A DNA stretch of 43,984 bases from a virus (taxonomy: Duplodnaviria > Caudoviricetes). A model generated the notes under the pieces. That model was given only the letters and a program-made list of their open reading frames with translations, was not told where the DNA came from and ran no database searches. Of this stretch, positions 1-43,984 are shown one piece after another. A program made the translations under genes and the position numbers. Every line of letters begins with the position of its first letter. The first letter of the stretch is position 1. The DNA is taken from the IMG/VR virus record IMGVR_UViG_3300044652_000002, positions 1 to 43,984 of that record; one strand, written 5' to 3'.

Positions 1-126
1 GTATCTGGTTCATTTCTCCCCCAAAAGAGCTTTCGCGGCTTCCTTAGTCTTGAAGTGCTCCTCGCGCGTCGTCATAGTCGATGCCATGCGGATGACGCGC
101 TCTGCTTCCTGCTCTAGTGCAGCGTT
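1..126. repeat. 126-bp exact repeat of 43650-43775 (shared left flank of the allelic module swap; circular junction)
   Basis: Base-by-base identity from GTATCTGGTT to GCAGCGTT; the copies diverge at 127 versus 43776. Confidence 0.97.
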
Positions 127-888
127 CACGACGGCAGGAGCGAGATAAAGCGGCTCCTGCTCCTCGCTCGCGTCGAGGTCGTTCCACGGCGTATCGGAGT
201 AGTGCCACTGCTTGCCCTTCTTCCGCTTCCAGCGCCATGCGACCGGAGCGCCCTGCGGCAGCTTCGCCTTGAGCGCCGCCATCAGGTCAACGGATGTTCC
301 TGCGTCAGGCAGCGCAGGACGGCGCGCCGCGTCCACGCAGGGCTTGCAGATGTAGATGTCGGGAAGCTCGCCGTGGGTGATCGACCATTGCTCGCGTGGG
401 CGCTGGTGTCCGCAGAGCAGGCACGAAGGGCAGAGCATCGAACCCTTCGCGTGCCGATCCCAAAAGTCCTTGTAGGTGCGGGCGGCTTGCTCCTCCCCGG
501 TGCTAGGCAGAGCAGCACCCGCAGGCCGGTCGGTTCCCTGAGTCCCGTCCTGAACCCTATCCGGTTGCCCGGTCAGAGGGGAAGCCTGCGGGGCTACATT
601 CAATAGCTCGGCGGCGAATCGCTTGGCCCAAAGGATGCCTTGCCGTGCCTCGCCATCGGGGATCGCGCAACCGAGCACTTCACGCGCTAGGCGTAGCGTT
701 TCCTCGCGCTTCCTGCCGTAGAGCGAAGGCTGCGGCGGTTCGGCGTCCACGATGGATGTTCCGGCAGAGGGCAACGCAAGCTCCATGATCTCGCGCTCGG
801 CAAGATCGGCGTCCACCGGGAAATCGCTGTAGCGGACAGCCTGAAGCAAATCCTTCAAGCGTTGCCGCTTATCGGAACATCCATTCAT
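10..888 (-). CDS. Multi-module mosaic protein (Ea22/DUF551-like style), including a Cys4 Zn-finger module and a PVAW...PLY module
   Basis: ATG at 888 overlaps the upstream TGA (ATGA); modules are joined by recurring ALPxAGTS/ALPSTGEEQ linkers. Confidence 0.8.
   Translation of the reverse strand: MNGCSDKRQRLKDLLQAVRYSDFPVDADLAEREIMELALPSAGTSIVDAEPPQPSLYGRKREETLRLAREVLGCAIPDGEARQGILWAKRFAAELLNVAPQASPLTGQPDRVQDGTQGTDRPAGAALPSTGEEQAARTYKDFWDRHAKGSMLCPSCLLCGHQRPREQWSITHGELPDIYICKPCVDAARRPALPDAGTSVDLMAALKAKLPQGAPVAWRWKRKKGKQWHYSDTPWNDLDASEEQEPLYLAPAVVNAALEQEAERVIRMASTMTTREEHFKTKEAAKALLGEK
292..347. repeat. 56-bp exact repeat of 43929-43984 (shared right flank of the allelic module swap)
   Basis: GGATGTTCCTGCGTCAGGC...GGCTTGC is identical up to the last base of the window. 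Confidence 0.97.
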
Positions 889-1605
889 GCGGGCTCTCCG
901 TCGTAGCACATGCAGTCAATGTCGATGGCCTGCTCGGGGAACAGCTTGGCTTGCCGGTCGTCGGCGTCGTACAGAGCGCCCCATGAGAAGTAGCGTCCGA
1001 GTCCCTTGATCTGCGTCAGGTCCGCGTTCTGCTCCATCGCCACGGCACGCGCGGCGAGATCCGGGTAACATGCGCCGGAGCTCGAAAATCTCCTGCTTCT
1101 TGGACGACGGGCAGAAGAAGCAGGCCGACTTGCCGGGGCTCTTAAGTCCTGCCCTCGCGATAGCCTGTTCGCATTCGGCGCGTCCCCACTCCCATTCGAG
1201 GAGCGGGTAGCGGTATCCCTCGTTGTTCTTGGCGCGGTGCGGCTCGTCTGCGTCGATCCCGACCAGCATCGTGTGCTCGATGCCTTTCAGACGGTCCTGG
1301 ATCGGCTTCACCTTCCATTCGACGGAGCAGGACTTGAAGCCGTAGGCGATGCCGGGGAGGCGCTTGTAGTGCAGGCAATCGGCCTCCAGCGTCGGCTGCT
1401 TGCGGCTCTTGTTGCTCACGACTTCAGGCACCGGCAGACCCCTGCTGGAGCACCAGAACGAGAAGCTCGAAAGGAAGTCGTAGGTGTGCGGCTTCTCGCC
1501 CCCTGTGTCTGCGAACAGGATCAGGTCAACGGGCTCGCCACGCTCCCACAGGCCGATGACCATCGCCGCCGAGTTCACGCCGCCGCCGAAGGAAGCCACG
1601 ATCAT
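885..1605 (-). pseudogene. PAPS-reductase family (PP-loop) protein with a +1 frameshift at ~1067 (real or sequence error)
   Basis: SFGGGVNS, FADTGGE, GIDADE and KSACFFCP motifs; removing one A at 1067/1068 gives MYPDLAARAVAMEQNA...IDCMCYDGEPA* ending at 885 with an ATGA overlap. Confidence 0.8.
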
Positions 1606-1835
1606 TTGGCGGGAATGTCCTGTCGGTGAACATCCATCACGGAGCTAGTGCCAGCCTCTTTGTGTGCATTCACGACTGCCTCCAACGCTGTCTCGCCTTC
1701 GCCGTAATGGAATTTGCTGTCCCGCCAAACACGCGCCCACCACCGTTGGTTCTTCGGTTTGGTGTGATCTACCTCCACGTTGGAGCACCCGGCTGTTAGC
1801 TCGGCCGCTTGCTCGGGGGTCACGGAATTACGCAC
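1602..1835 (-). CDS. hypothetical protein (77 aa)
   Basis: ORF coupled to its neighbours; ends inside the 1610 site. Confidence 0.7.
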   Translation of the reverse strand: MRNSVTPEQAAELTAGCSNVEVDHTKPKNQRWWARVWRDSKFHYGEGETALEAVVNAHKEAGTSSVMDVHRQDIPAK

Positions 1836-2208
1836 GGGCGACTAACCTGCCAGTGCGAATGTCATTGACGACCGGCGTTTCCGGGATCGGCATGTAATGG
1901 GAGACGTAGCCGTAGCTCCAACCGTTGGAGCCACCACCCTTGTATTCGTCGATTACGACCTCGCCGCTGCCAGTGATGATGAGATAGCGCCCCGGCTTCT
2001 CGGGAGCGTTGCCTTCGATCCATCCGTTCTTTTCCATTGGTTCTTGCTCCTTTCTCTCCGAGGAAACGGAAAGCCCCTTGATGGCGAGGTCGAGCAGCCG
2101 TTCCCATTCGTCTGGAAAGACGAAGTTGCGGGACTCGTACTGCTTCTTCCACCGCTCGTACTTCGCGGCTTCCTCTCCGTCGTGGCGCGATGAACATCCT
2201 TGCGTCAT
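1828..2208 (-). CDS. Two-module protein with a C-terminal DUF551-like domain
   Basis: GWI...P...G.YL...W...VSHYMPIPE.P signature; ATGA overlap at 2208; the 2045 site joins the modules and carries an SD plus a downstream ATG. Confidence 0.75.
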   Translation of the reverse strand: MTQGCSSRHDGEEAAKYERWKKQYESRNFVFPDEWERLLDLAIKGLSVSSERKEQEPMEKNGWIEGNAPEKPGRYLIITGSGEVVIDEYKGGGSNGWSYGYVSHYMPIPETPVVNDIRTGRLVARA

Positions 2209-2714
2209 TGGACGAACTTCCATTGGGCGTTCCTCCACACGGTGTAGATTTGGCGATCAGAGCAGCCGTAGATCCCGGCCAGCTCTTGAGCGGTCTTGCT
2301 GCCCTTCAGGGCGCGTATCTCGCGCACCTTGGCTACCGAAAGCTTCTGCTGCTTCACCCTGCGGCCCTTAACGTGCATGTCGATCATGTTGTCCTGGTGC
2401 GTCCCGATGAATAGGTGCTTGGGGTTCACGCAGGGCTGGTTGTCGCAGCGATGAAGGACGTGCATTCCGGTCGGGATGGGGCCATTGGCAAGCGCCCATG
2501 AATAGCGGTGCGCGTTGTAGTGCTTCTCCTTCCAGACGAAATGGCCGTAGCCCATCGGCTTGCGGGCAGCCGTCCAAGGCCAGCAGGCGTCAGGGCCACC
2601 GGACTTGTCCACGCGCATCCAGAACATCTGCTCGGCCGTAACGCCGCACTTCTGGCCGTGCTTTCCCACGGTTCCCCGGAAGGTCTGGCCGCACTTAGGA
2701 CAGGTGGCGCTCAT
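2205..2714 (-). CDS. HNH homing endonuclease with a C-terminal HTH
   Basis: CWPW..GYG..AHRYSW..VLHRCDNQPCVNPKHLFIGTHQDN. Confidence 0.92.
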   Translation of the reverse strand: MSATCPKCGQTFRGTVGKHGQKCGVTAEQMFWMRVDKSGGPDACWPWTAARKPMGYGHFVWKEKHYNAHRYSWALANGPIPTGMHVLHRCDNQPCVNPKHLFIGTHQDNMIDMHVKGRRVKQQKLSVAKVREIRALKGSKTAQELAGIYGCSDRQIYTVWRNAQWKFVQ

Positions 2715-2742
2715 GCTGCGTTGCCGTAGCTGTCGCGACGGA

Positions 2743-2916
2743 TCACAGCTCGAAGCGCTCGTAATAGTCCGGCTCCCGGTATTCGTCCGGGTCGTAGCAG
2801 CTACCTTCCTCGGCCTTCTTGTTGAGGATGTGCGCCTGGGGGTGGTCGCAATGCACCTTGCAGCCCCAGCAGATGCCGTAGCCTTTCGGGCAGTTCAGCG
2901 GCGTGTTGTCAGCCAT
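2743..2916 (-). CDS. small Cys-rich hypothetical protein (57 aa, MADNTPLNCPKGYGICWGCKVHC...)
   Basis: Read by hand; AGGAG SD inside the 2921 site. Confidence 0.65.
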   Translation of the reverse strand: MADNTPLNCPKGYGICWGCKVHCDHPQAHILNKKAEEGSCYDPDEYREPDYYERFEL

Positions 2917-2943
2917 GTCTTGCTCCTATTCCGAAGGAACGAT

Positions 2944-3223
2944 TCACCGAAGTTCCGCCGCTCCGGCTTCCATGAGGGCCAAGCGATGCTCGAACGGCTC
3001 GCGCTCCTCTTTCTTGGCGCACTTGTCGCCACGCTTGGTAGCGCATTCCGCGCAGGCGAACCGCGAAGTAAACGGTGGAGAACTCGTTGAGTCGGCGGTG
3101 GCCGCAGCAGTTGCTTGGGCGCTTATTCCGGTTCGCCCCGCTGTATCTGTAGAGCCGACCTTCGCCAGCCTCCACGTCCTTGCCGCAATCGCAGCAGAAC
3201 GACTTGTAGCGGTTCGCGCTCAC
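2944..3223 (-). pseudogene. Zn-finger protein with a +1 frameshift at ~3055 (real or sequence error)
   Basis: N-terminal CCDCGK; removing one G at 3055/3056 restores VRCAEC...AAELR*. Confidence 0.65.
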
Positions 3224-3369
3224 GCGATTTCCTTCGCGGACTTGCGGCACAGTTCCGCCGCCTTGAGCGCCGCCTGTTCGTTGCGCTTGTCGCCCACTGC
3301 CGCGTATGCCTTGGCGACTTTCTCGTGGTGCTTGGCGGTGGCTTCGTACTGCTCTTTGGTCGGTTTCAT
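3220..3369 (-). CDS. hypothetical protein (49 aa, MKPTKEQYEATAK...)
   Basis: GGAGG SD; GTGA overlap with the next gene. Confidence 0.7.
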   Translation of the reverse strand: MKPTKEQYEATAKHHEKVAKAYAAVGDKRNEQAALKAAELCRKSAKEIA

Positions 3370-3396
3370 CTGCGCCTCCGTATTAAGTGTGTAGAC

Positions 3397-3448
3397 ATTA
3401 AATCATGTCCAAGGAGGGATTGCAAGTCTTTTTTGTGTACCCCATAAT
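3397..3448. promoter_or_regulatory. Divergent sigma70 promoters sharing one palindromic -35 (TTGCAA 3420-3425)
   Basis: Plus strand: TTGCAA-17-CATAAT(3443-3448); minus strand: TTGCAA-17-TTTAAT(3402-3397). Confidence 0.7.
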
Positions 3449-3455
3449 TACGGCC

Positions 3456-3623
3456 ATGACACCTAAGAAACGGGGCAGGCCACCCCTACCGGCCAAGGAA
3501 CGGAGCACCAAACAGGTGCATTTCCGCTGCACCGCAGCAGAAAAGGCGGAATACAAGCGGAAGGCCAAGGCAGCAGAGAAGGGGCTTTCCGACTGGCTGA
3601 AGGACTTGGCCGACAAAGGCTGA
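3456..3623 (+). CDS. Small ribbon-helix-helix regulator with an AT-hook-like KRGRPP (probably leaderless)
   Basis: KKRGRPP...VHFRCTAAEK...A...GLSDWL; ATG 7 nt after the -10. Confidence 0.75.
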   Translation: MTPKKRGRPPLPAKERSTKQVHFRCTAAEKAEYKRKAKAAEKGLSDWLKDLADKG

Positions 3624-3729
3624 TCCGCTTCGTTGGCGTAAACATCCATTAGGGCCGGAGCCCCCGGCATAGCTTTGAGGCCGCCACAGCCCGATCTCGC
3701 GATCTGCTCACCGAGGGCTCCGAAAGTCA

Positions 3730-3990
3730 TCAGAAGGGAATGTCCGCGTCGTCTTGCTTGGCGGCCTTCTCTTCCTTCTTGAAGTTGGAAACTGAGGCGT
3801 ACCACTTCCCGCCCTTGGATTCCTTCACGTCGATGTTTACCCACTGCTCTCCGGCTTTGTATTTCTCGCGAAGCCACTTACCGAGGTCTTCGACCTTGAT
3901 GGCGATCCTGGCCTTTACGAAGTCGGGAGCCTTTTCGTGCGGAGCTGCGACCAAGAGGCCGTCAACGAACTCGATTTCTTTCTTTTCCAT
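3730..3990 (-). CDS. Single-stranded DNA-binding-like protein
   Basis: Acidic DDADIPF C-terminus; directly follows erf. Confidence 0.7.
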   Translation of the reverse strand: MEKKEIEFVDGLLVAAPHEKAPDFVKARIAIKVEDLGKWLREKYKAGEQWVNIDVKESKGGKWYASVSNFKKEEKAAKQDDADIPF

Positions 3991-4644
3991 CTATGCCGCC
4001 TTCTTCGGTTTGGAATCGGTGTGCATCGCCTTGAGCCTGTTTCTGATCTTCGAGTGGGGCTGAAGGACTTCCCAAATCCCGAGGAGCATTTCGTTTTCGT
4101 AGCCGGCGTTGTAGTAAGCCTCATAAGCGGCGATCTCCTTGCCCTCTCCCCACAGGTCAACGATGGTGTTGGCGACCTTCTTTGCTTTCTCTTGATCCTG
4201 CGGAGAGAGGGCTTTGAGGGAACCTGCTACCGGAGTGATCCTTGACTGCTCGCCACTGGCTACAGCGGCGTTGCCGTCGTCATCTTCTGCTGGGAGACCG
4301 CAAATCGCCTGGAGGCCGTAGCGCCGGCCGTAGGTGATCGCTGAGCCGTATCCTTGGGCATCTTCCTTCGTGGCCGGGATTCGTAGCGTCGAGCTGATCC
4401 ACTCGCCGGAGGAATGGAGAAGCATCGTTTCAATGGCGACTCCGTTCTCGGCGTCGTGAACTCCCTGAGCGAAGATGATCTCCTGCTCGAGGAGCGCAGG
4501 CTTGACGGCCTCGACCACGGACGCAAGATCCGCGTACTTCGACTTGAAGTAAGGATTAGAAGCGTCCTTCTTTACTGCGGTGATCTTGGAATGCGCCTTG
4601 ACCAGCGCAGCGGAAATCTTGGCGATGCTTTCGGACTTGTTCAG
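3991..4644 (-). CDS. erf: ERF-family single-strand annealing recombinase (CTG start)
   Basis: NPYFKSKYADL and GSAITYGRRYGL...DDDGN motifs; the frame is open to CTG 4644 with an AGGAG SD and a CTGA overlap. Confidence 0.9.
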   Translation of the reverse strand: MNKSESIAKISAALVKAHSKITAVKKDASNPYFKSKYADLASVVEAVKPALLEQEIIFAQGVHDAENGVAIETMLLHSSGEWISSTLRIPATKEDAQGYGSAITYGRRYGLQAICGLPAEDDDGNAAVASGEQSRITPVAGSLKALSPQDQEKAKKVANTIVDLWGEGKEIAAYEAYYNAGYENEMLLGIWEVLQPHSKIRNRLKAMHTDSKPKKAA

Positions 4645-15333: not shown

Positions 15334-15410
15334 CCCGTTGTATTGGGCGATGGTGACGGATGGGATCCTCGCGCCCCCAGAAAACATAAAAGAAAAGCTA
15401 GAGGAGTTTC

Positions 15411-16445
15411 TTGCATCAGTTAGCAAGCGGCACCTGGGGGACTGAAGAACTCGAGGCTGTAAGAGAGGTGGTCGATAGCGGCCGGTTCACGATGGGCGCT
15501 AAGACCTCCGAATATGAGAAAGCGTTCGCGGACTATATTGGCAGTAAGTACGCGGTGGCCTGTAATTCCGGCTCTTCCGCCAACCTACTCATGGTTGCGG
15601 CCTATACCCTGCGCTATGGGCGAGGAGTTGCGATTGTCCCGGCCGTGGCGTGGGCGACTTCTTACAGTCCATTCCAGCAATACGGTTGGAAGCTCGTCTT
15701 CCTCGACATCGACCGCGAGACGCTTAATTACAACCCGGCTGATCTTTGGCGGGCGGTAGAAAAATACGAGGACGCGGTAATCCTGGCGGTGAATCTTCTG
15801 GGCAACCCGAACGACTTCAACGCCTTTCCCAGAAAGGCTCATGTCCTAGAGGACAACTGCGAATCTCTAGGAGCTGAGTACGACGGCCGGAAGACCGGAT
15901 CTTTCGGCTTGATGTCGTCTCACTCGACTTTCTTCAGTCACCACATCTGCACGATGGAAGGCGGTATGGTGACGACCAACGACGAGTGGTTGTATCAGGC
16001 GATGCTATGTCTCAGGTCTCACGGCTGGACTAGGCATCTTCCAGAAAAGAACGTCTTTGGGGTCAAGCCGGGGAAATTCGATTTCCTCTTTCCTGGGTAC
16101 AACCTGCGGCCCACGGAGATGCAAAGTGCCATTGGGTTACGGCAGTTGGAAAAGCTTGACCGAATTATCGAAGGCCGGAGGGACAATGCCTCAAGGTTCC
16201 CGCTCAAGACCCAGAAAGAGACAGGCAAAAGCTCGTGGTTTGGCTTTACTGTCTTTGGTTCAGATGTGGAGAGAGTGTCTAAGAGCTGCGAGACGCGGCC
16301 GGTGGTTACGGGCAATTTCCTTCGTTCGCCGTCCATAAAGTTCTACGACTACGAAAGCTTAGAGACTCCTAACGCTGATTACGTTCACGACCAAGCCTGC
16401 TTTATAGGCAATAGTCACGAGCGTATTGACTGGAGTTTTATCTGA
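15411..16445 (+). CDS. DegT/ColD-type PLP/PMP-dependent NDP-sugar dehydratase/aminotransferase
   Basis: NSGSSANLL, EDNCESLGA, FFSHHICTMEGG (His in place of the Schiff-base Lys), RSHGW, GYNLRP. Confidence 0.88.
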   Translation: MHQLASGTWGTEELEAVREVVDSGRFTMGAKTSEYEKAFADYIGSKYAVACNSGSSANLLMVAAYTLRYGRGVAIVPAVAWATSYSPFQQYGWKLVFLDIDRETLNYNPADLWRAVEKYEDAVILAVNLLGNPNDFNAFPRKAHVLEDNCESLGAEYDGRKTGSFGLMSSHSTFFSHHICTMEGGMVTTNDEWLYQAMLCLRSHGWTRHLPEKNVFGVKPGKFDFLFPGYNLRPTEMQSAIGLRQLEKLDRIIEGRRDNASRFPLKTQKETGKSSWFGFTVFGSDVERVSKSCETRPVVTGNFLRSPSIKFYDYESLETPNADYVHDQACFIGNSHERIDWSFI

Positions 16446-16459
16446 CCTTCCACCCGACC

Positions 16460-17101
16460 ATGAGGGCTGTGGTGGAGAAGGTAAGACCGCTACTTCCACC
16501 CAAAGCAAGGGTCTTGGAGTTCGGGAATCAGCGGTTCACCGCAGGCAACGATTTTGGAAGTACAGAGGACTTCTACAAGAGTCTGGGGATCGAATATCTG
16601 GCTCTAGACGTGAACGAGAAGATGGGCGCAGTTATTTGCGACCTGAATAAGACAGGTCATTCTCACCGAGCGGAGTTGGTGACAAATAACGGCACTTCAG
16701 AGCACATCTTCAACCAAGCAGCATGTTTCCAGAATGCTCACGAGATGAGCACGGACGTGATGCTCCATGTCTTACCTTTTACGCCGTGGATCAATCATGG
16801 TTTCTACAACTACAACCCGATCCTCTTCAGGGATTTGGCTGCGGCGAACGACTATAAGACGATCTTCCAGGCCATCGCCAATCGCTCGAGGCAGTGGATT
16901 GAGCTAGGTGAATGGGCGTTTGTAGAGAAAAGACCTGACGAGCTGATTAGGAAGGCCCAAAGACTCATGCCTGGAGGGGAAGTGTTCGTTGTTTTTGTTT
17001 TCCGAAAGAAGACCGACGAACCATTCAAATTCCCGTTTCAGGGCAAATACAGGCAGGACATAACGGACAGAGGCTTGGTTGACGCCTACGCTGCTGGATA
17101 A
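16460..17101 (+). CDS. SAM-dependent methyltransferase
   Basis: VLEFGNQ, ALD, VTNNGTSEHIFNQ, HGFYNY. Confidence 0.75.
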   Translation: MRAVVEKVRPLLPPKARVLEFGNQRFTAGNDFGSTEDFYKSLGIEYLALDVNEKMGAVICDLNKTGHSHRAELVTNNGTSEHIFNQAACFQNAHEMSTDVMLHVLPFTPWINHGFYNYNPILFRDLAAANDYKTIFQAIANRSRQWIELGEWAFVEKRPDELIRKAQRLMPGGEVFVVFVFRKKTDEPFKFPFQGKYRQDITDRGLVDAYAAG

Positions 17102-17756
17102 AGCCCAGCGAATTGAGACCGACCCGTTTCCTCATGTTGTTGTTGAAGGGGCTCTGCCAGAGGGTTACTACGAGAGGTTGGTAAGCACAAGACCAACCCC
17201 AGAGCAGATCATGCAGTGGACGGGCAAGATTCTGGGACCGAATCAAAGGCTGGATCTCCCGACGAAGCAAGCGCTATACAGGCTTCCTCCCATCTGGGTC
17301 GAGTTCTGTAGAGCACATACATCTGCAGATTTCGTGCAGATGGCAATGAGGCTGCTGAATGCTCCGCTAGTTCAAGCAACCAGGATCGAGTGTCAGCCGG
17401 GGATTAACACTCCCAGCCCTGTTTTATCGAAGGTCAGGGGGCCTCATTTGGACAACCCCAAGGAAATCTATGCTGGGTTGTTCTACATGGCATCTGACTC
17501 AGATGGCGGGGACTTGGAAATCTACCGCTGGAAGTCTGGAGAGAAGAAGTACCACGGAAAACTTGAAGTCTATGAGGAATGCGTCGAGCTGGTGAAGACG
17601 GTTCCTTATAAACCGAATACCTGCGTTTTTTTCCTCAACGGACCTAATGCTTTGCATGGGGTCACTCCGAGGAAGTCGAAGAACTTTAGAAGCCTAGTGA
17701 ATGTGATCGCGGAGACGCGAGAGCCTTTGTTCCGGGTCGGCCACGGCCCCTACTAA
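17079..17756 (+). CDS. 2OG-Fe(II) oxygenase
   Basis: PFPH, HLD, GGDL, HGV, distal Arg. Confidence 0.82.
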   Translation: MTPTLLDKAQRIETDPFPHVVVEGALPEGYYERLVSTRPTPEQIMQWTGKILGPNQRLDLPTKQALYRLPPIWVEFCRAHTSADFVQMAMRLLNAPLVQATRIECQPGINTPSPVLSKVRGPHLDNPKEIYAGLFYMASDSDGGDLEIYRWKSGEKKYHGKLEVYEECVELVKTVPYKPNTCVFFLNGPNALHGVTPRKSKNFRSLVNVIAETREPLFRVGHGPY

Positions 17757-17770
17757 GTAGAGAGAAGAAA

Positions 17771-18373
17771 ATGCCGAGACTAAATAACAACAGCTTCACG
17801 GCGAGCGGCGATCTCCTGTGGACGCAGGATGTCTATGGGAGTGATGGAGCTAAGCAAGTCCTCGCGGCGCAGATCAGGGCGTACGCCGATGGAGCTGCTG
17901 CGGATAGCGCCATCCCTGGCCGGTTCGAGTTCTGGACCTCGACCTCTGGCGGCACGCTCACCAAAGCGCTGACTCTGGATGCCTCCCAAGCCGCTACTTT
18001 CGTAGCCGGCATTACGGGGACCAACGTCACCGCCTCGGCTCTTCTCAAGCTCTCCGGTATCGAGACCGGTCTTACGGCGCATGCTGGCGGTGGTCAAGGT
18101 TCCGCCCTGGCCCTCTCGGGGTCCAAATCGGTTCATAACGTCACCACTGTTGGGACGGCTGCTGACTCCGTGGCGCTGCCTCTCGCTACTGGCTCAGGGG
18201 CGATTCACATTGTCAAGAACTCCGCAGCCTCCAACTCGATGCAGCTCTTCGGGTCCGGGACGGACACGATTGATGGCGTTGCCACCGGTACTGGCGTCGC
18301 GGTAGCGGCTGGTAAGTGCCGTATCTGCGTTGACTTCGCCTCGGGGACCTGGCTCTCACTCCTCGGAGCCTAA
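17771..18373 (+). CDS. Gly/Ala/Ser/Thr-rich putative virion decoration or fibre protein
   Basis: Composition; PGRFEFWT and DTIDG motifs resembling the tail fibre at 32019. Confidence 0.55.
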   Translation: MPRLNNNSFTASGDLLWTQDVYGSDGAKQVLAAQIRAYADGAAADSAIPGRFEFWTSTSGGTLTKALTLDASQAATFVAGITGTNVTASALLKLSGIETGLTAHAGGGQGSALALSGSKSVHNVTTVGTAADSVALPLATGSGAIHIVKNSAASNSMQLFGSGTDTIDGVATGTGVAVAAGKCRICVDFASGTWLSLLGA

Positions 18374-18873
18374 TGCTCATTTCAGAGGACTACCGGGAGC
18401 AGAACAGGCTTCTACACGCATCGGACAAGACCTTCGGGGTCGGGGCAAGAAAGAAAGTGGCCTTGATAAAGGAACTGGAGGCCAAGTACGGCACGAGGGA
18501 CATCCTGGACTATGGATGTGGAAAGAAAGACCTTCAGGGAGCTTTGGGTTACGAGATACAGAATTACGACCCATGCGTTGCTGGGTGTGATGCAGAACCA
18601 AGGCCGGCGAGGCTTTTAGTTTCCCTTGATGTTCTCGAGCACGTCGAACCGGAGCTATTAGACAACGTGCTAAGGCACATGCGCGGCCTGATGCTTGAGG
18701 CCGGATTGCTAATCATCGCGCCGAGAGAATCCAGCGCGATTCTTCCTAATGGGAAGAACGCCCATCAAATTGTCAAAAGCAAAAAGTGGTGGGTCAGGAA
18801 GGTTGGGGAGTTCTTCAACATCGAATCCGTCTCTCCTAAGGAGAACGACGTAATCATTTACGTCAAGGCATGA
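18373..18873 (+). CDS. Class I SAM methyltransferase
   Basis: ILDYGCGK, YDP, DVLEHV, NAH. Confidence 0.85.
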   Translation: MLISEDYREQNRLLHASDKTFGVGARKKVALIKELEAKYGTRDILDYGCGKKDLQGALGYEIQNYDPCVAGCDAEPRPARLLVSLDVLEHVEPELLDNVLRHMRGLMLEAGLLIIAPRESSAILPNGKNAHQIVKSKKWWVRKVGEFFNIESVSPKENDVIIYVKA

Positions 18874-37846: not shown

Positions 37847-37922
37847 GCTGGCGTAGCTCAGTTGGTAGAGCAGTCGCTTCGTAAGCGTCAGGTCGCGTGT
37901 TCGAGTCACGCCGCCAGCACCA
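37847..37922 (+). tRNA. tRNA-Thr(CGU), full length with CCA
   Basis: GCTGGCG/CGCCAGC acceptor stem, AGCTCAGTTGGTAGAGC D arm, TT-CGT-AA loop, GTTCGAGTC T loop, ACCA end; 76 nt. Confidence 0.95.
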
Positions 37923-38843
37923 TCAGGCAATCTTCTTAATAGCGTCCTTAAGGGTGTCTGTAGCTAGGTGGGCGTAGCGCTTTGTCGTCTGCGCCTGGGT
38001 GTGACCGAGAATCGCCCCGATGGTGAAGAGAGGTACGCCAGCCTTGGCGAGCATCGAGGCTGTCGTGTGTCTTAGGTCGTGGAAGCGAACATCCTGTAAG
38101 TCTGTCGCCTTCCTGCAAGCCCGCTGGAAGGATTTAGTCAGATACCACTTGCTGACCTTCAGCGGCAGGTATTTAAGGTACGGTCTTAGTTTGCGATGGA
38201 TCGGCACAAGCCTGGGCTTGCCCGTCTTGGTGTCGTCTAGCCTGAAGTGATCTCCCTCGACCTTGGGCGGAGACAGCAGTTCGCCTTGCCTCATTCCTGA
38301 GTAAGCGGCGAGCATGATTCCAGCCCTGACCGGACCACGCTTCGCCGCTCGAGCGGACAAAAGCAACTGCCGGCGCGTTAAATAGACGTGCCTAGCGTTG
38401 TTCTCCGGTAAGAGCTGGATCTTCATATGCAGGGGCTCCTCTAGGTAGCCCCATTCAGAGTAAGAGAGGCGCGCAACGCGCTTCAGGACGGCCAACCGTC
38501 TATTCACAGAGGCGTTGGCGAGTCTCCCCCTATGAGCCGCCTTGTAAGCCTTGGCGACCTCGGCAATCTGCTTGATTACCTTCCCCTCGACCCAATCCGC
38601 CAAGGCGTAAGCATTGGATTCGGTCCTGTCCCTGGATTTGTGGCCAGCGACCTCTTCGGTCAGCCACCGCTGGATCGCGGCCCCGATCAGGACTTGACCA
38701 GTTGCAACGGCCTTATGCTCGCGGATGGCCTTTGACTCCTTGTCCCTCGCGTCCTGCTTCGTCTCGCCCGTTCCATGTACGCGCTTTCCGTCGCGCTGGA
38801 AGCCGTAGTGCCAGCGCCCCTCTTTGTCTCTCCAGACAGACAT
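37923..38843 (-). CDS. int: Tyrosine integrase
   Basis: SGMR, K(TG), HDLRH, LGH, RY catalytic residues; N-terminal arm-binding-type domain. Confidence 0.95.
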   Translation of the reverse strand: MSVWRDKEGRWHYGFQRDGKRVHGTGETKQDARDKESKAIREHKAVATGQVLIGAAIQRWLTEEVAGHKSRDRTESNAYALADWVEGKVIKQIAEVAKAYKAAHRGRLANASVNRRLAVLKRVARLSYSEWGYLEEPLHMKIQLLPENNARHVYLTRRQLLLSARAAKRGPVRAGIMLAAYSGMRQGELLSPPKVEGDHFRLDDTKTGKPRLVPIHRKLRPYLKYLPLKVSKWYLTKSFQRACRKATDLQDVRFHDLRHTTASMLAKAGVPLFTIGAILGHTQAQTTKRYAHLATDTLKDAIKKIA

Positions 38844-38995
38844 ACCTTCCTCCCATTAAGGAAGCTTTCTAGTTCCTTGGGGTCAATCCTAATCCCGCCC
38901 CTGATGTCCAGGAACGGTAGCCCATCCTCGAGCAGCCGGTAAGCGGACCTGACCGAGATATTGAGCTGGGCAGCTACTTGGCGAATCGTGAGCAT
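38687..38995 (-). CDS. xis: Excisionase (HTH_17)
   Basis: MLTIRQVAAQLNISVRSAYRL...RIDPKELESF; overlaps the int start. Confidence 0.82.
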   Translation of the reverse strand: MLTIRQVAAQLNISVRSAYRLLEDGLPFLDIRGGIRIDPKELESFLNGRKVCLSGETKRGAGTTASSATESAYMERARRSRTRGTRSQRPSASIRPLQLVKS

Positions 38996-39021
38996 CTACC
39001 CTTCGTTCAGGGAATAGGAGA

Positions 39022-39231
39022 TCAGCGCCATGGCCACGGACGCTCTTCATAACCCATCGCCCTGCATCGGTCGCCGAAATCGAGGAGCGGCGTGATCTGG
39101 AAGGGTCCGATGTAAATCTGTATTCCGTTGTGGAACTGAAATCCTAGGAGCCACTTCCTCAGATCGTAGAGAACATGGAATCGCCTAGCGACGACCCACA
39201 TGTGGAAGTACCACCAGTGCGAGTTGTTCAT
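39022..39231 (-). CDS. hypothetical protein (69 aa, aromatic-rich)
   Basis: ATGA overlap. Confidence 0.6.
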   Translation of the reverse strand: MNNSHWWYFHMWVVARRFHVLYDLRKWLLGFQFHNGIQIYIGPFQITPLLDFGDRCRAMGYEERPWPWR

Positions 39232-39380
39232 GCGAATGCCGACCGTATGGCCGACGCAACCCGACCAAACACGGCTCTCCGCCGCGCCACCGCCGCCCAG
39301 CGGTAGTCCTTGCGTTTGCGCACTTGGTATAGGCGTCCGGTCCACCAAATATTCGTGACCTTCGACCAGCGCCGCTTCAT
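39228..39380 (-). CDS. hypothetical basic protein (50 aa)
   Basis: ORF ends in the 39232 site. Confidence 0.5.
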   Translation of the reverse strand: MKRRWSKVTNIWWTGRLYQVRKRKDYRWAAVARRRAVFGRVASAIRSAFA

Positions 39381-39406
39381 CTCGGCCCGTCGAGCGGCTA
39401 AGTTAC

Positions 39407-39622
39407 TCAGGATTCGTGGCGCTGTTCGTTGGGCCATATCTTCAACTTGCCTCTATGCTCGCAGTAGATAGTCGGGATACCGCATATGCGCCTAGGATTA
39501 AAACCAGCGCGGCGCACGTTCCAAAACACACGCGCCATCTCAGCAGGTTTAACCGGAATCACGACCGTTCCGTAGTTAGTTTCCAGAGGAACATTTACCA
39601 AGCGAAAATCCTCCTGTACCAA
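39407..39622 (-). CDS. hypothetical protein
   Basis: ORF in the operon direction; start uncertain. Confidence 0.5.
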   Translation of the reverse strand: MVQEDFRLVNVPLETNYGTVVIPVKPAEMARVFWNVRRAGFNPRRICGIPTIYCEHRGKLKIWPNEQRHES

Positions 39623-39831
39623 GGCACGGCGGCAGGCGTGACGATTCCGGCCCTTGCGCCTTCCTCATAGTCCTCGATGCGGTAGCCAGCGTCCTCCACC
39701 GCAAGCTCTACTTCCGACTTGATCGTGTAGGCCAAGGACTCGACCAGCTCGCCGTAGATGCGGTCTGAGCGGATCGGCAGGCCATCCATGACTTCGGCAG
39801 CCAAGATGCGGCATTTAGCGTCAATGCTCAC
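39595..39831 (-). CDS. hypothetical protein
   Basis: GTGA overlap; AGGAG SD. Confidence 0.65.
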   Translation of the reverse strand: MSIDAKCRILAAEVMDGLPIRSDRIYGELVESLAYTIKSEVELAVEDAGYRIEDYEEGARAGIVTPAAVPWYRRIFAW

Positions 39832-40031
39832 TTGTCGCTCCTGCTCTCGTGTGCGGCGGATAGTTCGTCAGTGACTTCCGGCACGTCCTGCCATTCGCTC
39901 CAAATCCATCGCTTCAGCGGCCCCGCTTTGCCACCGAACTCGTACCCGATGCTTTGCGTGCGGAATTGAAGCCGCCGGTACGGATTGGAGCCTGGAGCCA
40001 CGGCCGGCGAATACCAGCGCAATTCGATCAC
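39828..40031 (-). CDS. hypothetical protein (MIELRW...LQFR...WSEWQDVP family)
   Basis: GTGA overlap; recurrent small-phage-protein pattern. Confidence 0.7.
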   Translation of the reverse strand: MIELRWYSPAVAPGSNPYRRLQFRTQSIGYEFGGKAGPLKRWIWSEWQDVPEVTDELSAAHESRSDK

Positions 40032-40294
40032 TTCGGATCTCCGCTTCGCTGAGGTCGAAGTTCGTCGAGGTCTGGAACCTGCCGCCATACGACCTTCTCG
40101 CCAAGCCCCTCTAGGGCTTCCCCGAGGCCGCACGGCTGAATGTGTCCTTCATGTTGAGGCGTCGGGGCGCTTGGATGTGGGCGCACCTTGCTGAAGAACT
40201 TGCCCGGTCTGAGTCCGCAGCAATAGCGGCATTGCCCGTTCCCCATGTTCCATTCAATGATGCGCAGAAAAGAGATTGCCGGCTGCGGGTTCAC
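40028..40294 (-). CDS. Cys/His hypothetical protein
   Basis: EWNMGNGQCRYCCG...H...C. Confidence 0.7.
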   Translation of the reverse strand: MNPQPAISFLRIIEWNMGNGQCRYCCGLRPGKFFSKVRPHPSAPTPQHEGHIQPCGLGEALEGLGEKVVWRQVPDLDELRPQRSGDPK

Positions 40295-40551
40295 GGATGT
40301 TCATCTCCACACGGGAGCAATTGCTTCCCGCTCTTGTCGAAGTATTCGATCATCGAAAAGTCACCGCCGTTGCACTCGGGGCAGAGTAGCCGGATTAGAG
40401 CCGTGCCTGGAGGGTCGGTAGGGTCGGCCTCGGCCCGATGCTCCTTCTTACACCCTGTGCAGCGTAGCGTCACCCAGCAGTCGCAGCCGACGTTCATGGG
40501 CGTTCCGCACTTGACGCACGGCAGAGTTTTGAAATGGTCGAGGAAGCTCAC
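40291..40551 (-). CDS. Cys-rich Zn-ribbon protein
   Basis: CVKC, CTGC, CPEC. Confidence 0.7.
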   Translation of the reverse strand: MSFLDHFKTLPCVKCGTPMNVGCDCWVTLRCTGCKKEHRAEADPTDPPGTALIRLLCPECNGGDFSMIEYFDKSGKQLLPCGDEHP

Positions 40552-40575
40552 GCCGGATGTTCTATGTCGTGAAGT

Positions 40576-40692
40576 TCACCAGCCGATGTCCTGCGTATCG
40601 TCCTCGTCATCCCTCGGCGCTCCACCAGCGATAGCCAGCAGCAGGACGAACAGCGCACCGCAGGCCCACCACACCATTTCGTCGTAGCTCAT
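40576..40692 (-). CDS. 38-aa single-TM peptide with an acidic tail
   Basis: MSYDEMVWWACGALFVLLLAIAGGAPRDDEDDTQDIGW; bounded by two sites. Confidence 0.55.
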   Translation of the reverse strand: MSYDEMVWWACGALFVLLLAIAGGAPRDDEDDTQDIGW

Positions 40693-41207
40693 GGCCGATC
40701 CGCTTCTGTGGAAGCGGCATTTACGCTGGGTAGCAGGATGAACGCCGCGATGTGCCTGCCAGTACCCTTACCGGCTGATCCGTCCTCTGTCGCCAGCCAG
40801 CGCACGTCCCCGAGGTTTCGGACGTGGCCTTGATCGCCCACGATGGCCTTCAGGAGCATCAGGATCCACTTGTCGATCGGGTAGACCAGCACCACGGTCT
40901 TGCCCTTGCGCCATTCCTCCAGCGCCTTCCTGACCCACGCCGTGGGGCCTTTCTTGCGGCCCTGGTGAACGATGGATCCGAAGGGCGGGTTGACGTAGTT
41001 CCGCTGCCCCCATTCGCACGTCAGGCCGTCAAAGCCCTCCGGCAGCGGGTACGGGCAGGGGTCGAAGTCGAACGGCCCGAACTCGGCGGACAGCGCGGCC
41101 AGCACGTCCGGTGGCGTCAGCCAGTAGTGCTTGCCGTCGTCGCCGTTCCCGCGGTGGAACTTGTTGTCCTCCGGGGCGAGCTGCGACTGGTGGACGAGAT
41201 CGTTCAA
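40689..41207 (-). CDS. Phage DNA N6-adenine methyltransferase (Dam-like)
   Basis: WLTP, FDFDPC, DGL..EW, YVNPPF. Confidence 0.82.
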   Translation of the reverse strand: MNDLVHQSQLAPEDNKFHRGNGDDGKHYWLTPPDVLAALSAEFGPFDFDPCPYPLPEGFDGLTCEWGQRNYVNPPFGSIVHQGRKKGPTAWVRKALEEWRKGKTVVLVYPIDKWILMLLKAIVGDQGHVRNLGDVRWLATEDGSAGKGTGRHIAAFILLPSVNAASTEADRP

Positions 41208-41464
41208 GCGGGGACCTTTGCCTCAACGCCATCAAGGCCAGCCCGAGCGCGCCGCAGGCAGACCTTGCAGACGCCGCTCTCGCCCATGTTGCCGCGCCAG
41301 ATCGAGTAGGACTGGCCATCGTCTCGATTCCAGCCGTTGCGACACATCGGCAGGCCGGGGTCGGCAAAGTCGCCCTTGTAGAGATGCGCGGTCTTGGGAT
41401 GCGGGAAATCCCGCCCCAAGCCGAGGATGTATCCCTCGGGAATATTGCTGGTGAGGATCCCCAT
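41204..41464 (-). CDS. hypothetical protein
   Basis: TAATG coupling; PMC...CKVC. Confidence 0.7.
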   Translation of the reverse strand: MGILTSNIPEGYILGLGRDFPHPKTAHLYKGDFADPGLPMCRNGWNRDDGQSYSIWRGNMGESGVCKVCLRRARAGLDGVEAKVPA

Positions 41465-41658
41465 TAGCCTGCGTTGCCCTTTGGAGAAACATCCGGCTTC
41501 TCGATGGCCTTCTTCAGTTTCCTCGTCAGTCGTTCCATTTCATCGGCATGGCGGCGCTGCACGCGATAGTCGAAGAACTTGATGGAGTTCAGCAGCACGA
41601 GGCAGTCGGCCATGATTCGGTAATAGGGCGGGCGCTCGCCTTTGCGATAGTTAGCCAT
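41464..41658 (-). CDS. hypothetical protein
   Basis: ORF ending in the 41469 site. Confidence 0.65.
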   Translation of the reverse strand: MANYRKGERPPYYRIMADCLVLLNSIKFFDYRVQRRHADEMERLTRKLKKAIEKPDVSPKGNAG

Positions 41659-41815
41659 GAGGTCTCTTGAGCAGGCGGCGCTGCGACGGCCATGTGTGTG
41701 GGCGGTGGCTGATGCAGACCTTCAGTTCTCCGAATGTCTGCGTATGCAGCGGCATCCACGTTCCACCCGGCCAGCACGGTTTCCAGTCGCGAGTAGCGAT
41801 GCGGTTGCGGATCAC
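41651..41815 (-). CDS. hypothetical protein (54 aa)
   Basis: GTG start with an AAGGA SD from the 41818 site. Confidence 0.5.
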   Translation of the reverse strand: MIRNRIATRDWKPCWPGGTWMPLHTQTFGELKVCISHRPHTWPSQRRLLKRPHG

Positions 41816-41843
41816 GTCTGTCCTTTCCTATCTGCGGCAACTA

Positions 41844-42152
41844 TCAAAGGTTGAACCCGTAGCGGGTGAGCATGTCGTCCGTAACGATGGTCAACCGCTT
41901 CGGCGGCTCTCTTTTCACCGGCTCACACTCGCAGGGGCGGTTCTCGATTGCGGTGTACATCCCGTATTCCATGCGCCAGATGCGATGAGCCTCATGGGCC
42001 ACCTTGATAATCTGGCCGCCCTTGAAGCCGAACCAGTCGCAGAGCATCTGTGATGTCCACGGCAGCGGGGACGCCTGCAATAGGCTGACCAGCGCCTTCT
42101 GCATTGGCGCGTGCTTGGAGAAGCGCAGGCCGATGAAGCAGGGCTTCTTCAA
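41844..42152 (-). CDS. hypothetical protein (possible winged HTH)
   Basis: TTGA overlap at 42152. Confidence 0.6.
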   Translation of the reverse strand: MKKPCFIGLRFSKHAPMQKALVSLLQASPLPWTSQMLCDWFGFKGGQIIKVAHEAHRIWRMEYGMYTAIENRPCECEPVKREPPKRLTIVTDDMLTRYGFNL

Positions 42153-42274
42153 GCGTTGCCCCTCTCCGGGGAGGGCAGGCAGGGGCAGTCCTCCCACGGC
42201 GCGGCGGTGCAGCCGGCCTGGTGGGTGAAGGGGAGGTAGTGCTCGCCGACGATGCTTCCGCTGGAGTACGTCAT
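42149..42274 (-). CDS. 41-aa hypothetical protein
   Basis: ATGA overlap; ends LPSPERGNA in the 42151 site. Confidence 0.55.
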   Translation of the reverse strand: MTYSSGSIVGEHYLPFTHQAGCTAAPWEDCPCLPSPERGNA

Positions 42275-42900
42275 GCGGCGACGGCCTCGCGCTCGCCGAG
42301 TGCGCCCCACTGATCGGCCATCGCGTCCGCTATCCCTTGAAAGGTCAGGCTCCGCACCCTCCAGCGATCCGGCCCCGGAGCTGCCCGGTGTATCGCGTTC
42401 CATTCGCGCTTCTCCTGTAGCGACATTTCCTTGGGCGGTGGCCCGACGACGTTCGTAGCCTTGAGCGGCGGCAGGCCGTCCAGCCAGAGGCAAGTCGCCT
42501 TGGTCGCCTTGTGGCCGAACTCCCACGGCTGGATCGTCTGATCCGACTCCCGCCAGAACGTCGAAAGCACGCCGATGGGGTTCTCGATGGCCTTGCCGAC
42601 CCGGACCCGGATGGCCCACAGCGCCCGTACGAAGTGCAGAGCCGACAGTCGGGCTTCGACCCGCCATGCCTGCTTCATGCTCCAGCGGTTCGCGCTGACG
42701 GTCAGGAAGGTGCAGTCCGGGTGTGCGATCAGGATGTCCCACTCCTGCTCGATGATTTCGTGGTCCAGGATGGAGCCGGTGTAGTGGTAGGGCGAACGGT
42801 CCTCCGGCCAGAGTAGGTCGCAGCTCCATGCGTCGTGTCCCCGGCGGCGGAAGGCTTCCCGCACCCGGCCCGACGATTCGCAGGCGACCAAGACCCTCAA
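42271..42900 (-). CDS. DNA cytosine methyltransferase-like protein
   Basis: RVLVACESSG, WSCDL, IAHPDCT, IENP, QPWEFG, K.TCLWL, RS.TF.GIADAMADQW. Confidence 0.85.
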   Translation of the reverse strand: MRVLVACESSGRVREAFRRRGHDAWSCDLLWPEDRSPYHYTGSILDHEIIEQEWDILIAHPDCTFLTVSANRWSMKQAWRVEARLSALHFVRALWAIRVRVGKAIENPIGVLSTFWRESDQTIQPWEFGHKATKATCLWLDGLPPLKATNVVGPPPKEMSLQEKREWNAIHRAAPGPDRWRVRSLTFQGIADAMADQWGALGEREAVAA

Positions 42901-43103
42901 CCCTGCTGCTCCTTCCTTGCGGAAGAAGGGGATGCATCGCGGATCGCTCGGCCCTGCGCACAGGTGCAGCAGGAGAACTCCGGCGAATCGGCCTCGATCA
43001 GCAGGCCGTCCCAATCCCAACAGAAGTGCCACCGCTGCTTCTCCTCGGCGGTGAGCTTCAGCATGGGGTTGTCCATCAACTCGCGGTGACGCTGCGGCGT
43101 CAT
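42897..43103 (-). CDS. hypothetical protein (WHFCWDWDGLLI...CCTC)
   Basis: ATGA overlap; bounded by sites. Confidence 0.7.
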   Translation of the reverse strand: MTPQRHRELMDNPMLKLTAEEKQRWHFCWDWDGLLIEADSPEFSCCTCAQGRAIRDASPSSARKEQQG

Positions 43104-43513
43104 TTCCGTTCTCCGTGGGAGGGAACGTATGGCAGGCCGGTGTAGGCAGGGTTGCGCTTCGCCCACATCAGTTCCTCGCGGGCAAGTCCAGGCGTCTCCC
43201 CGAAGCCGGCCGGCGACTCTTGCAGGTTGATGAAGTCGGGATCGACGGCGCACCACATATTCCCGTCCTTGAATACGCGGGTCAGCGGGCCGCCGTGCTG
43301 CGGGCAGGCGAGGTAGGGCACATACCCCGCATAGCGGCCGTCCTCGGCCCACTCGTAGCCGTCCCAGCGCCGGAAGTACCGGGTCGGGACACGCTCGCCG
43401 TAGGCTTTCCGGTCGCAGAACCCGGCAGGACCACCGCCGCTCCACATCGGCACGGAGCAAAGCCCCTCGCCGAACTCGTCCAGTTCCTTGTGACGCTGCG
43501 AGCAGACGGCCAT
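43100..43513 (-). CDS. hypothetical Cys-containing protein
   Basis: TAATG coupling; DGNMWCA...FINLQESPAGFG. Confidence 0.75.
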   Translation of the reverse strand: MAVCSQRHKELDEFGEGLCSVPMWSGGGPAGFCDRKAYGERVPTRYFRRWDGYEWAEDGRYAGYVPYLACPQHGGPLTRVFKDGNMWCAVDPDFINLQESPAGFGETPGLAREELMWAKRNPAYTGLPYVPSHGERK

Positions 43514-43662
43514 TAGGCTTGCTCCTTCCTAGATGAGATAGCGGAGCGCAGTAGTCGTCGCAGCTTTTGAAGGGCCAGCGCACGACGGTCGATAAGCGGT
43601 CGCTTGGATATTTCGAGGTAGAGGCGCATCGCCTCGATGCCGTTGGCAAGTATCTGGTTCAT
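43513..43662 (-). CDS. hypothetical protein (49 aa)
   Basis: ATGA overlap; bounded by the 43520 and 43633 sites. Confidence 0.6.
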   Translation of the reverse strand: MNQILANGIEAMRLYLEISKRPLIDRRALALQKLRRLLRSAISSRKEQA

Positions 43663-43984
43663 TTCTCCCCCAAAAGAGCTTTCGCGGCTTCCTTAGTCTT
43701 GAAGTGCTCCTCGCGCGTCGTCATAGTCGATGCCATGCGGATGACGCGCTCTGCTTCCTGCTCTAGTGCAGCGTTGGGCAACGCAGCCAGTTCCTTCTCC
43801 ATCTTGGCCGCGAAATCGCGCATCAGCAGGAAGGCGACCTCCCATCCGTTCACGTCGTCGCCGTAGTCCAGCCCGAGCAGTCGCTTGTGCTCCTCGGCGG
43901 TGCGGGGCGCATCGGCGGGGACGAAAATGGATGTTCCTGCGTCAGGCAGCGCAGGACGGCGCGCCGCGTCCACGCAGGGCTTGC
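43659..43984 (-). CDS. 3' part of the alternative allele of the mosaic protein at 10-888 (runs off the window end)
   Basis: Same flanking peptides with a different 51-aa insert. Confidence 0.8.
   Translation of the reverse strand, partial: KPCVDAARRPALPDAGTSIFVPADAPRTAEEHKRLLGLDYGDDVNGWEVAFLLMRDFAAKMEKELAALPNAALEQEAERVIRMASTMTTREEHFKTKEAAKALLGEK

Follow-up and report, generated by a model that had tools for sequence, protein, structure and literature searches.

The virus genome IMGVR_UViG_3300044652_000002, analysed here as a window of 43,984 nucleotides that covers the whole record, carries a leftward array of small accessory genes in which many short two-armed sites are embedded, each consisting of two inverted arms around a short centre. 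We propose, with a probability of roughly 60%, that these are ordered, addressed crossover sites, and that a tyrosine recombinase, probably the integrase of the phage, swaps the piece of DNA lying between matching centres. The two-armed sites are real, and about 20 distinct ones are defensible in the 8.4-kb array. That they belong to a site-specific recombinase or exchange system is likely; the phage integrase as its enzyme is a plausible but tentative choice. A sequence-only reading of the window had suggested a site-specific cassette system driven by host Xer or another tyrosine recombinase. The cassette system is now supported by breakpoints at centre edges in variants from the source sample and in two distant phages, and the second enzyme alternative remains a likely reading.

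Evidence for the sites begins with their enrichment. The heptamer GGATGTT, previously counted nine times in the array, indeed occurs nine times in 8,385 bp where 0.68 copies are expected; 300 dinucleotide shuffles gave three at most. No other 7-mer of the array is as over-represented (p 4.7e-8), and none of 200 shuffles produced a 7-mer as extreme; the core genome has six copies in 35,264 bp. In an anchor-only test, all three inverted pairs of A and B arm cores in the array had a gap of exactly 6, and none was found in the core. The partners of D arms were most like those of A arms at gap 6 (p 0.003), and nearly as much so at gap 5. The spaced-dyad scan of array against core that the sequence-only reading had proposed, run here with leave-one-out scoring, revealed six array sites and none in the 35-kb core at a score of at least 19 and spacer 6, compared with zero to one in the array at spacers 4, 5, 7 and 8; at a score of at least 18 and spacer 6, the counts were 11 and three. 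Clustering regained the five arm families A, B, C, D and E as first described, while generic repeat finding did not detect the site system. Our catalogue contains 17 curated sites, whose curation was seeded by the arms of the earlier reading, plus about three weaker ones (2716, 39608 and 40038; sites are named by their first window coordinate). Three further copies are duplicates in the redundant end of the window, and the earlier estimate of about 25 elements is reduced to about 20 distinct sites. The arms are not mutually palindromic, and A or D arms never partner A or D arms in 16 anchored sites; avoidance of same-family arm pairs, assessed by clustering, was not significant (P 0.24-0.27).

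These tests bear on the view that the dyads are operators of a regulator, or a by-eye pattern combined with assembly artefacts. Degenerate arms, the seeded curation and a small ribbon-helix-helix gene in the first cassette would fit such a view, but it is at odds with the leave-one-out and anchor-only tests, with breakpoints at centre edges and ordered centre sharing, and with the occurrence of one alternative module in an independent protein. We consider it very improbable, and its artefact part is largely refuted.

The placement of the sites is equally non-random. Twelve of the 17 curated sites lie at most 15 bp from a gene end, compared with about 23% of positions (an approximate background, 5/28 gene calls in the array being off by a few bases), and four of the other five are domain junctions of open reading frame (ORF) 10-888, in agreement with the original description of elements at gene ends and domain junctions. 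The first and last sites had also been placed at the core/accessory borders; this holds for the first (3622), whereas some 600 bp separate the lowest candidate (39608) from xis. Arm A is translated as G-C-S, M-D-V or P-D-V, G-T-S, and E-H-P in different genes, that is, in four frame/strand readings, which argues that the constraint acts on the DNA. The fixed spacing of the earlier 11-6-11 outline is retained in the array-only A/B pairs at gap 6; the conserved centre, however, is probably 7 bp rather than 6, judging from the sequence comparisons below. A 7-bp centre would mean that the A and D arms as first drawn include one centre base, and it would explain the 7-bp sites 2716 and 40038, each between two class-2 arms. 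Further dyad-like matches at window 40439-40467 and 40496-40524, both in one gene, combine an A/D-type arm with a 7-bp gap, equal to an 8-bp centre, and may be due to chance.

Alternative modules with edges at the sites were found within the source sample. The genome is present in one soil metagenome run, which was filed twice (runs X1 and X2 are a single data set); runs X3 and X4 contained none of the sequence words searched for. A public contig of this run, one circle of 43,679 nt with allele X, closes the circle, which sets the genome at 43,649 bp; the window end adds a 335-bp redundant stretch with the alternative allele Y, probably a minor allele retained by another assembler. The claim that the array spans a circular junction is correct in that the circle exists, although the window itself does not close cleanly. 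The stretch 1-126 is identical to 43650-43775, and 292-347 to 43929-43984, whereas the DNA between them differs. Both alleles have the left arm and spacer of site 110 in common and split at the next base, where X enters a C arm and Y a perfect B arm, and they converge again inside the A arm of site 290. Their lengths, 165 and 153 bp, differ by 12, and the frame is kept. Allele Y is a genuine module; the independent protein P0273 matches it at 73% over 44 aa, with different flanks.

A second branch in the source run is a 336-nt contig with a depth of 6.3 that matches 476-505 without mismatch and, in run X1, is the only mismatch-free piece besides the main circle. It diverges at site 488 one base past the spacer, its new arm agreeing with the C2 arm at 8/11 positions when compared by hand. 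Its other end does not rejoin the stretches examined, and the contig may derive from a related phage. Short imperfect contig pieces over the methyltransferase and PAPS-reductase genes were assigned to other organisms.

X and Y are alternative parts of ORF 10-888, which contains six sites; at five of them, the 6-bp spacer consists of two complete codons. The cysteine-rich module bounded by sites 488 and 290 is present in 146 of 151 homologous proteins of very different lengths. Module X occurs in three of the 151, where it begins and ends at the site edges but has other flanks; the module that follows site 752 occurs in one, and the first module in none. A homolog of the cysteine-rich module was also observed as a stand-alone gene on a bacterial contig (L084:7800-10700), among about a dozen small genes that each follow a different short repeat with a TGTCCG core; this gene row is possibly another cassette array. 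In the phage L088, an exact 72-bp duplication of a small cysteine-containing module (L088:3320-3391 and 3632-3703) lies inside one modular array gene.

Comparison with distant relatives disclosed that the centres recur in order. The two informative genomes, L088 and L089, are IMG/VR phages whose integrases are 45-46% identical to that of the window. Their arrays have no gene-level similarity to one another, and only one marginal 23-aa tblastx hit connects them with the window array. Even so, with all unfiltered 7-mer hits taken, the order of centres follows the window in both (tau 0.68, p 0.004; tau 0.38, p 0.02; combined p 0.0014). The sequence-only reading had asked for breakpoints in relatives, and a share of the match ends does fall at spacers. 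Five of the ten exact matches of at least 13 nt within or between L088 and L089 end on a window spacer, compared with 0/5 for comparisons with L001, the closest relative in core genes, and 0/57 control matches. With matches of at least 12 nt, 5/19 end on a spacer at shift 0 and none on hexamers shifted by 1-4, eight shifts in all (P 4e-5 against a junction-biased hexamer null).

The bases around the centres behave differently on the two sides. On the A/D side, the base next to the spacer equals that of the window in 27 of 61 hits in L088 and L089 (about 16 expected, p 0.001-0.002; p<0.03 for each phage), whereas the neighbour on the other side does so in 11/61, and controls were not significant. 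The dinucleotide CG at arm positions 4-5, as in arm B, was counted in 10/27 against 3/34. Within the two relatives, arms are reused across different addresses, inverted copies included, in exact register: nine pairs agree at 8/10 or more where 0.41 are expected, a level reached in none of 3000 null runs, and no pair remains after shifting. Among all 68 six-base hits, this reuse is weak (seven pairs, null mean 2.05, maximum 9), and it is strong only with a 7-bp anchor. At the same address, the arms of the relatives agree with those of the window at just 2.1 and 2.9 of 10 bases; partners of window arms within the window reach 9.1 and 7.8, although these are best-match values and not strictly comparable. 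In these comparisons, centres follow the address and arms the phage lineage.

The centres are not common to L001, whose integrase is 28% identical to that of the window and which has no excess of window centres, and no site of the window corresponds to the L088/L089 centre ACGTAT. An array of similar modular genes in L001 (10820-14940), which lacks the window centres, contains exact 17-nt repeats at its gene junctions; they form two pairs, and each repeat comprises a ribosome-binding site and start.

A different explanation is that the sites are boundary or linker sequences used by homologous recombination or by annealing through the phage Erf protein, and conserved through translation signals. 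The phage encodes homologs of Erf, NinB and NinG; the longest matches between the L088 and L089 arrays, 13-18 nt, consist of an arm plus the centre; arm D has the sequence of a Shine-Dalgarno element, and repeats of a similar element occur in L001 outside any dyad. Boundary sequences have, moreover, been proposed for phage mosaicism (PMC3029335), and a short sequence kept at the same junction among otherwise unrelated neighbours is what L088 and L089 display. Even so, linkers of this kind leave unexplained why the same arms are reused in inverted form at a fixed gap, why arms are alike across addresses within a lineage yet differ at one address between lineages, and why identity between phages is mostly limited to 6-8 centre bases. 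A whole linker is not common to the distant phages and the window, only to L088 and L089 at some addresses. We therefore regard linkers as an unlikely account of the array.

Inspection of the arms also argues against ordinary dif sites, which were part of the original proposal. The dif inner motif (ATAA/TTAT) was found in 0/35 arms, none of which has even three of its four bases, and it is in their inner part that dif arms are conserved most strongly (PMC2731167). The C and E arms had been said to resemble XerC arms loosely; the best XerC-arm match, 7/11, is at chance level (P 0.21), and the mean identity of 2.49 is below the 2.81 of random arms. The best XerD-arm match is 6/11, and the GC content of the sites is 57%. 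By their sequence, the sites thus appear not to be dif sites. An ordinary one was located in L001 (1236-1263), a phage with an integrase, as a near-canonical proteobacterial dif with 18/22 arm bases, intergenic and in the late region, outside its array; the counterpart in the window, at roughly the corresponding position (12545), matches at no more than 14/22 and is oriented the other way. The presence of this dif outside the array suggests that the hosts of the group probably use ordinary dif. Pdif-like targets of host XerC/XerD would account for the 28-bp two-arm outline and for the two E arms with 7/11 identity to the XerC arm, and have a precedent in plasmid dif modules (PMC9455709), but the missing inner motif, the GC content, the probable 7-bp centre and the dif outside the L001 array leave host Xer with hardly any credence as the driver.

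The inverted arms at a fixed distance, the short constant centre and the edges at that centre are, by contrast, the anatomy of tyrosine-recombinase core sites. A 7-bp centre corresponds to the overlap of lambda-type systems and 6 bp to the dif spacer (PMC8371274). The integrase is the only site-specific recombinase found in the window genome; each of four genomes has a single tyrosine recombinase gene, and no resolvase was found there. Its best solved relatives are phage integrases, and its presumed catalytic residues show little or no variation among 39 homologs; the roles of such residues in tyrosine integrases are well established. The centres are common to phages with integrases 45-46% identical but not to L001 with 28%. 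In addition, the 7-nt T-loop of the adjoining tRNA-Thr with its flanks (37889-37917) matches site 110 at 15/21, a level reached by 0.048% of core positions, for a match that was seen before testing and in a 10-7-11 frame chosen afterwards; the anticodon loop matches at 7-8/21. The L088 genome contains a tRNA 3' fragment that starts at the T-loop. Separately, xis and int of L088 (9849-10935) and L089 (9850-10975) lie inside the rightward early operon, with a cII-like gene on one side and replication genes on the other, and a long way from both the tRNA cluster and the putative att fragment (L122 near 6148).

If a tyrosine recombinase, be it the integrase or another, does act on the sites, each arm would bind one recombinase subunit, and strand exchange would require identity across the probably 7-bp centre only. 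The 17 curated centres differ within the genome, and deletion inside the array should then be rare. If a co-infecting phage or a resident prophage had these centres too, the module between two of them could be swapped in register, and distinct centres in direct order would allow a module to be replaced only by one with the same flanking centres. Inside ORF 10-888, where centres keep the frame, such exchange would rebuild the protein from modules. With the integrase as the enzyme, this would amount to a second job for it, a possibility that we put forward with reserve: reading ordered 7-bp addresses, it would exchange genes and in-frame modules between phages and yield combinatorial accessory proteins.

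The same architecture could instead be served by a tyrosine recombinase that belongs to the host or to a different mobile element and is not ordinary XerCD. The absence of A/D-A/D pairs suggests two different subunits, and most arms are unlike the tRNA loop flanks; arms that change with phage lineage, on the other hand, fit a phage-borne enzyme better unless the hosts also differ. We judge an enzyme from outside the phage to be quite improbable.

Several observations, besides the frame chosen after the fact in the T-loop comparison, weigh against an addressed crossover system run by the integrase. The T-loop match covers C-type arms only, and the commonest arms, A, B and D, are unlike the tRNA loop flanks. 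Integrases accompanied by Xis normally need arm-type sites and host factors, and no arm-type sites were identified at the array sites, where no search aimed at them was made. The weight of arm D as evidence is lowered by its being a Shine-Dalgarno sequence as well, and D together with two centres overlaps ribosome-binding sequence. Allele Y is known from the window assembly alone and is absent from the Logan contigs, which omit rare variants. The same-sample swaps have long identical flanks, and ordinary homologous recombination could move X and Y today; the X/Y swaps locate borders, not their maker. As for the relatives, only L088 and L089 were informative, with array limits set by eye. Their count of window 7-mers is weakly raised (p 0.015 and 0.032), while 12/79 control loci reach p<0.01, and L088 repeats some centres, one of them four times, so that centres are not always unique. 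The raw asymmetry between the two sides is reversed on the opposite strand (7 vs 20 of 57) and not significant after context correction.

Further searches mapped the reach of the system. The six arms of the sequence-only reading gave 0-2 dyad hits per locus at spacer 6 in 35 loci of relatives, and the exact B-A site pattern had no hit in viral contigs. A 16-nt L088/L089 junction pattern found 17 loci, two being L088 and L089; the other 15 had no tblastx match above 50 bits to the window, L088 or L089, and a pair examined looked unrelated. Neither a single-protein integrase scan nor a module scan of viral contigs gave a match. Integrases 67-81% identical exist, and close relatives are represented by integrases P0012-P0018, one of them on a 42-kb contig. 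The module scan of metagenomes returned four loci, three of which represent a single bacterial locus that carries a different type of repeat; a genome scan with ssb gave two uninformative loci, and helicase and cII-like scans one locus each with no new array. Phage and plasmid collections matched only methyltransferase, HNH, PAPS-reductase and hypothetical genes, and an Atlas search provided no usable host taxon.

The window as a whole is a complete temperate phage genome with a lambdoid layout, in the order integrase, excisionase, leftward small-gene array, ssb-like gene, Erf, repressor, replication, NinB/NinG, terminase, portal, capsid and lysis (Table 1). A promoter scan confined to 3100-3800 found one promoter-like site, about 170 bp from site 3622. 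The first cassette (3220-3623) combines an AT-rich intergenic stretch, the promoter-like site and a divergent ribbon-helix-helix gene, and may carry its own regulation into the array. Two overlapping ORFs at window 885-1605, namely 916-1605, which is PAPS-reductase-like, and 885-1043, have translations that suggest a single gene broken by a frameshift near 1050-1080. Before the terminase (12970-18873) lies a probable sugar-modification cluster with a glycosyltransferase 29-like protein, a DegT-type aminotransferase, a 2OG-Fe oxygenase and a methyltransferase, which is partly kept in the genome G003.

Table 1. Coordinates of window features; sites are written as left arm, spacer and right arm.
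Feature	Position	Strand	Remarks
Allele X module, 165 bp	127..291	-	form in public circular contig; 3 homologous proteins with same start and end edges
Allele Y module, 153 bp, in-frame alternative to X between same two centres	43776..43928	-	independent homolog P0273
126-bp block identical to 1-126	43650..43775	.	ends exactly at centre edge
Accessory array, part 1: small genes, Dam-like and second DNA methyltransferase	38995..43649	-	continues across circle into 1-3730
Accessory array, part 2: modular ORF, PAPS-reductase-like, HNH, small genes	1..3730	-	
Tyrosine integrase, candidate enzyme	37923..38843	-	
Excisionase-like HTH (helix-turn-helix) gene	38847..38995	-	start 38995; 3' end approximate
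tRNA-Thr(CGT), adjoins int	37847..37922	+	likely attP
Erf-like single-strand annealing protein	3991..4518	-	ORF as listed; true start probably further upstream
Small ribbon-helix-helix (NikA-like) gene, inside first cassette	3456..3623	+	promoter-like site 3420-3448
292-aa modular protein, modules between six sites	10..888	-	
Site C-TTGGCG-A, first site, core border	3622..3649	.	centre common to L088, L089
Site D-CGAAGG-E-like, weak	2921..2948	.	leave-one-out 14
Candidate site B-7 bp-C, just before HNH start	2716..2744	.	fits 7-bp centre between two class-2 arms
Site C-GCGCGA-A	2174..2201	.	
Site D-CTCCGA-C	2045..2072	.	centre common to L088, L089
Site (E-like)-TGTCGG-A	1610..1637	.	leave-one-out 16
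Site B-CTTATC-A, in frame in ORF 10-888	857..884	.	centre common to L088, L089, B-like arms there
Site A-GGCAGA-B, in-frame domain junction	752..779	.	
Site D-GGTGCT-B	488..515	.	336-nt branch contig departs here with C-like arm
Site A-TGCGTC-B, right joint of X/Y swap	290..317	.	duplicate 43927-43954
Site D-like-AGCGTT-C, left joint of X/Y swap	110..137	.	allele Y copy 43759-43786, right arm perfect B
Site D-like-TAGTCT-E, out of frame with other five in ORF 10-888	34..61	.	duplicate 43683-43710
Site D-AGATGA-C	43520..43547	.	
Site D-TGCGGA-C	42907..42934	.	centre common to L088, L089
Site B-CTCTCC-B-like, side assignment ambiguous	42151..42178	.	excluded from 16-site tests on relatives
Site B-TTTGGA-A	41469..41496	.	
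Site A-ATGTCG-E	40553..40580	.	centre common to L088, L089
Site A-TCTCCA-C	40293..40320	.	centre common to L088, L089
Candidate site C-7 bp-E, gene end	40038..40066	.	
Candidate site D-like-CCAAGG-C, gene junction	39608..39635	.	leave-one-out 17

How sharp mosaic junctions arise in phage accessory regions is an old question. The usual answer is illegitimate recombination followed by selection, with boundary sequences missing at most junctions (PMC3029335). The sites described here supply exact, testable coordinates for a programmed alternative and suggest how patchwork accessory proteins may be built in this phage group, in which one module recurs in 146/151 related proteins. Should the integrase act on them, nature would provide a system of ordered cassette exchange through many different centres, which would be interesting for DNA assembly. 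The feature is better supported than the sequence-only reading could show, yet it is not dif-like in sequence; beyond that reading, the centres seem to act as ordered addresses, and the window itself holds a swapped allele. We found no description of such sites in tailed phages in the full-text literature searched, which left subscription journals mostly out of reach; the accessible text of one preprint gave no mechanism (bioRxiv 10.1101/2023.04.06.535777).

Known systems resemble the array in part. Pdif modules of Acinetobacter plasmids are likewise accessory modules bounded by two-armed sites of about 28 bp and mobile between replicons (PMC9455709). The phage sites differ from them in having no dif motif, arms that vary by lineage and a centre that is probably 7 bp; their centres form an ordered series, many lie within coding sequence with the frame kept, and the carrier is a tailed temperate phage. 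Lambdoid boundary or linker sequences are also short, conserved and found in conserved order at mosaic junctions of the early region (PMC3029335), whereas the phage sites have two inverted arms at a fixed distance, only a short centre common to distant phages and sharp, register-specific edges. In T4-type phages, the repeats of PeSL cassettes mark insertion, deletion and replacement of small genes in hyperplastic regions, but these are promoter plus stem-loop repeats (PMC2839356), while the sites studied here are short, non-palindromic and often inside genes. The core sites of lambda-type integrases, with their tRNA att sites, consist of two binding sites around a 7-bp overlap (PMC8371274), which the probable 7-bp centre would match, and the phage likewise has an integrase gene beside a tRNA; about 20 sites per genome with differing overlaps, placed between accessory modules, set the phage array apart.

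Integron cassette arrays are arrays of small exchangeable genes separated by recombination sites, and the phage array shares this organisation. Its sites, however, are dyads of 28-29 bp with two unlike arms rather than attC-type hairpins, as judged without folding or an attC model search; no IntI-type enzyme was identified, the integrase matching phage integrases best, and modules appear to be replaced at fixed addresses instead of being stacked at one attI. Set against these systems, the array stands out for arms that are non-palindromic and lineage-specific, a centre of probably 7 bp, the exchange of modules in frame within a single protein, and alternative alleles found together in one sample.

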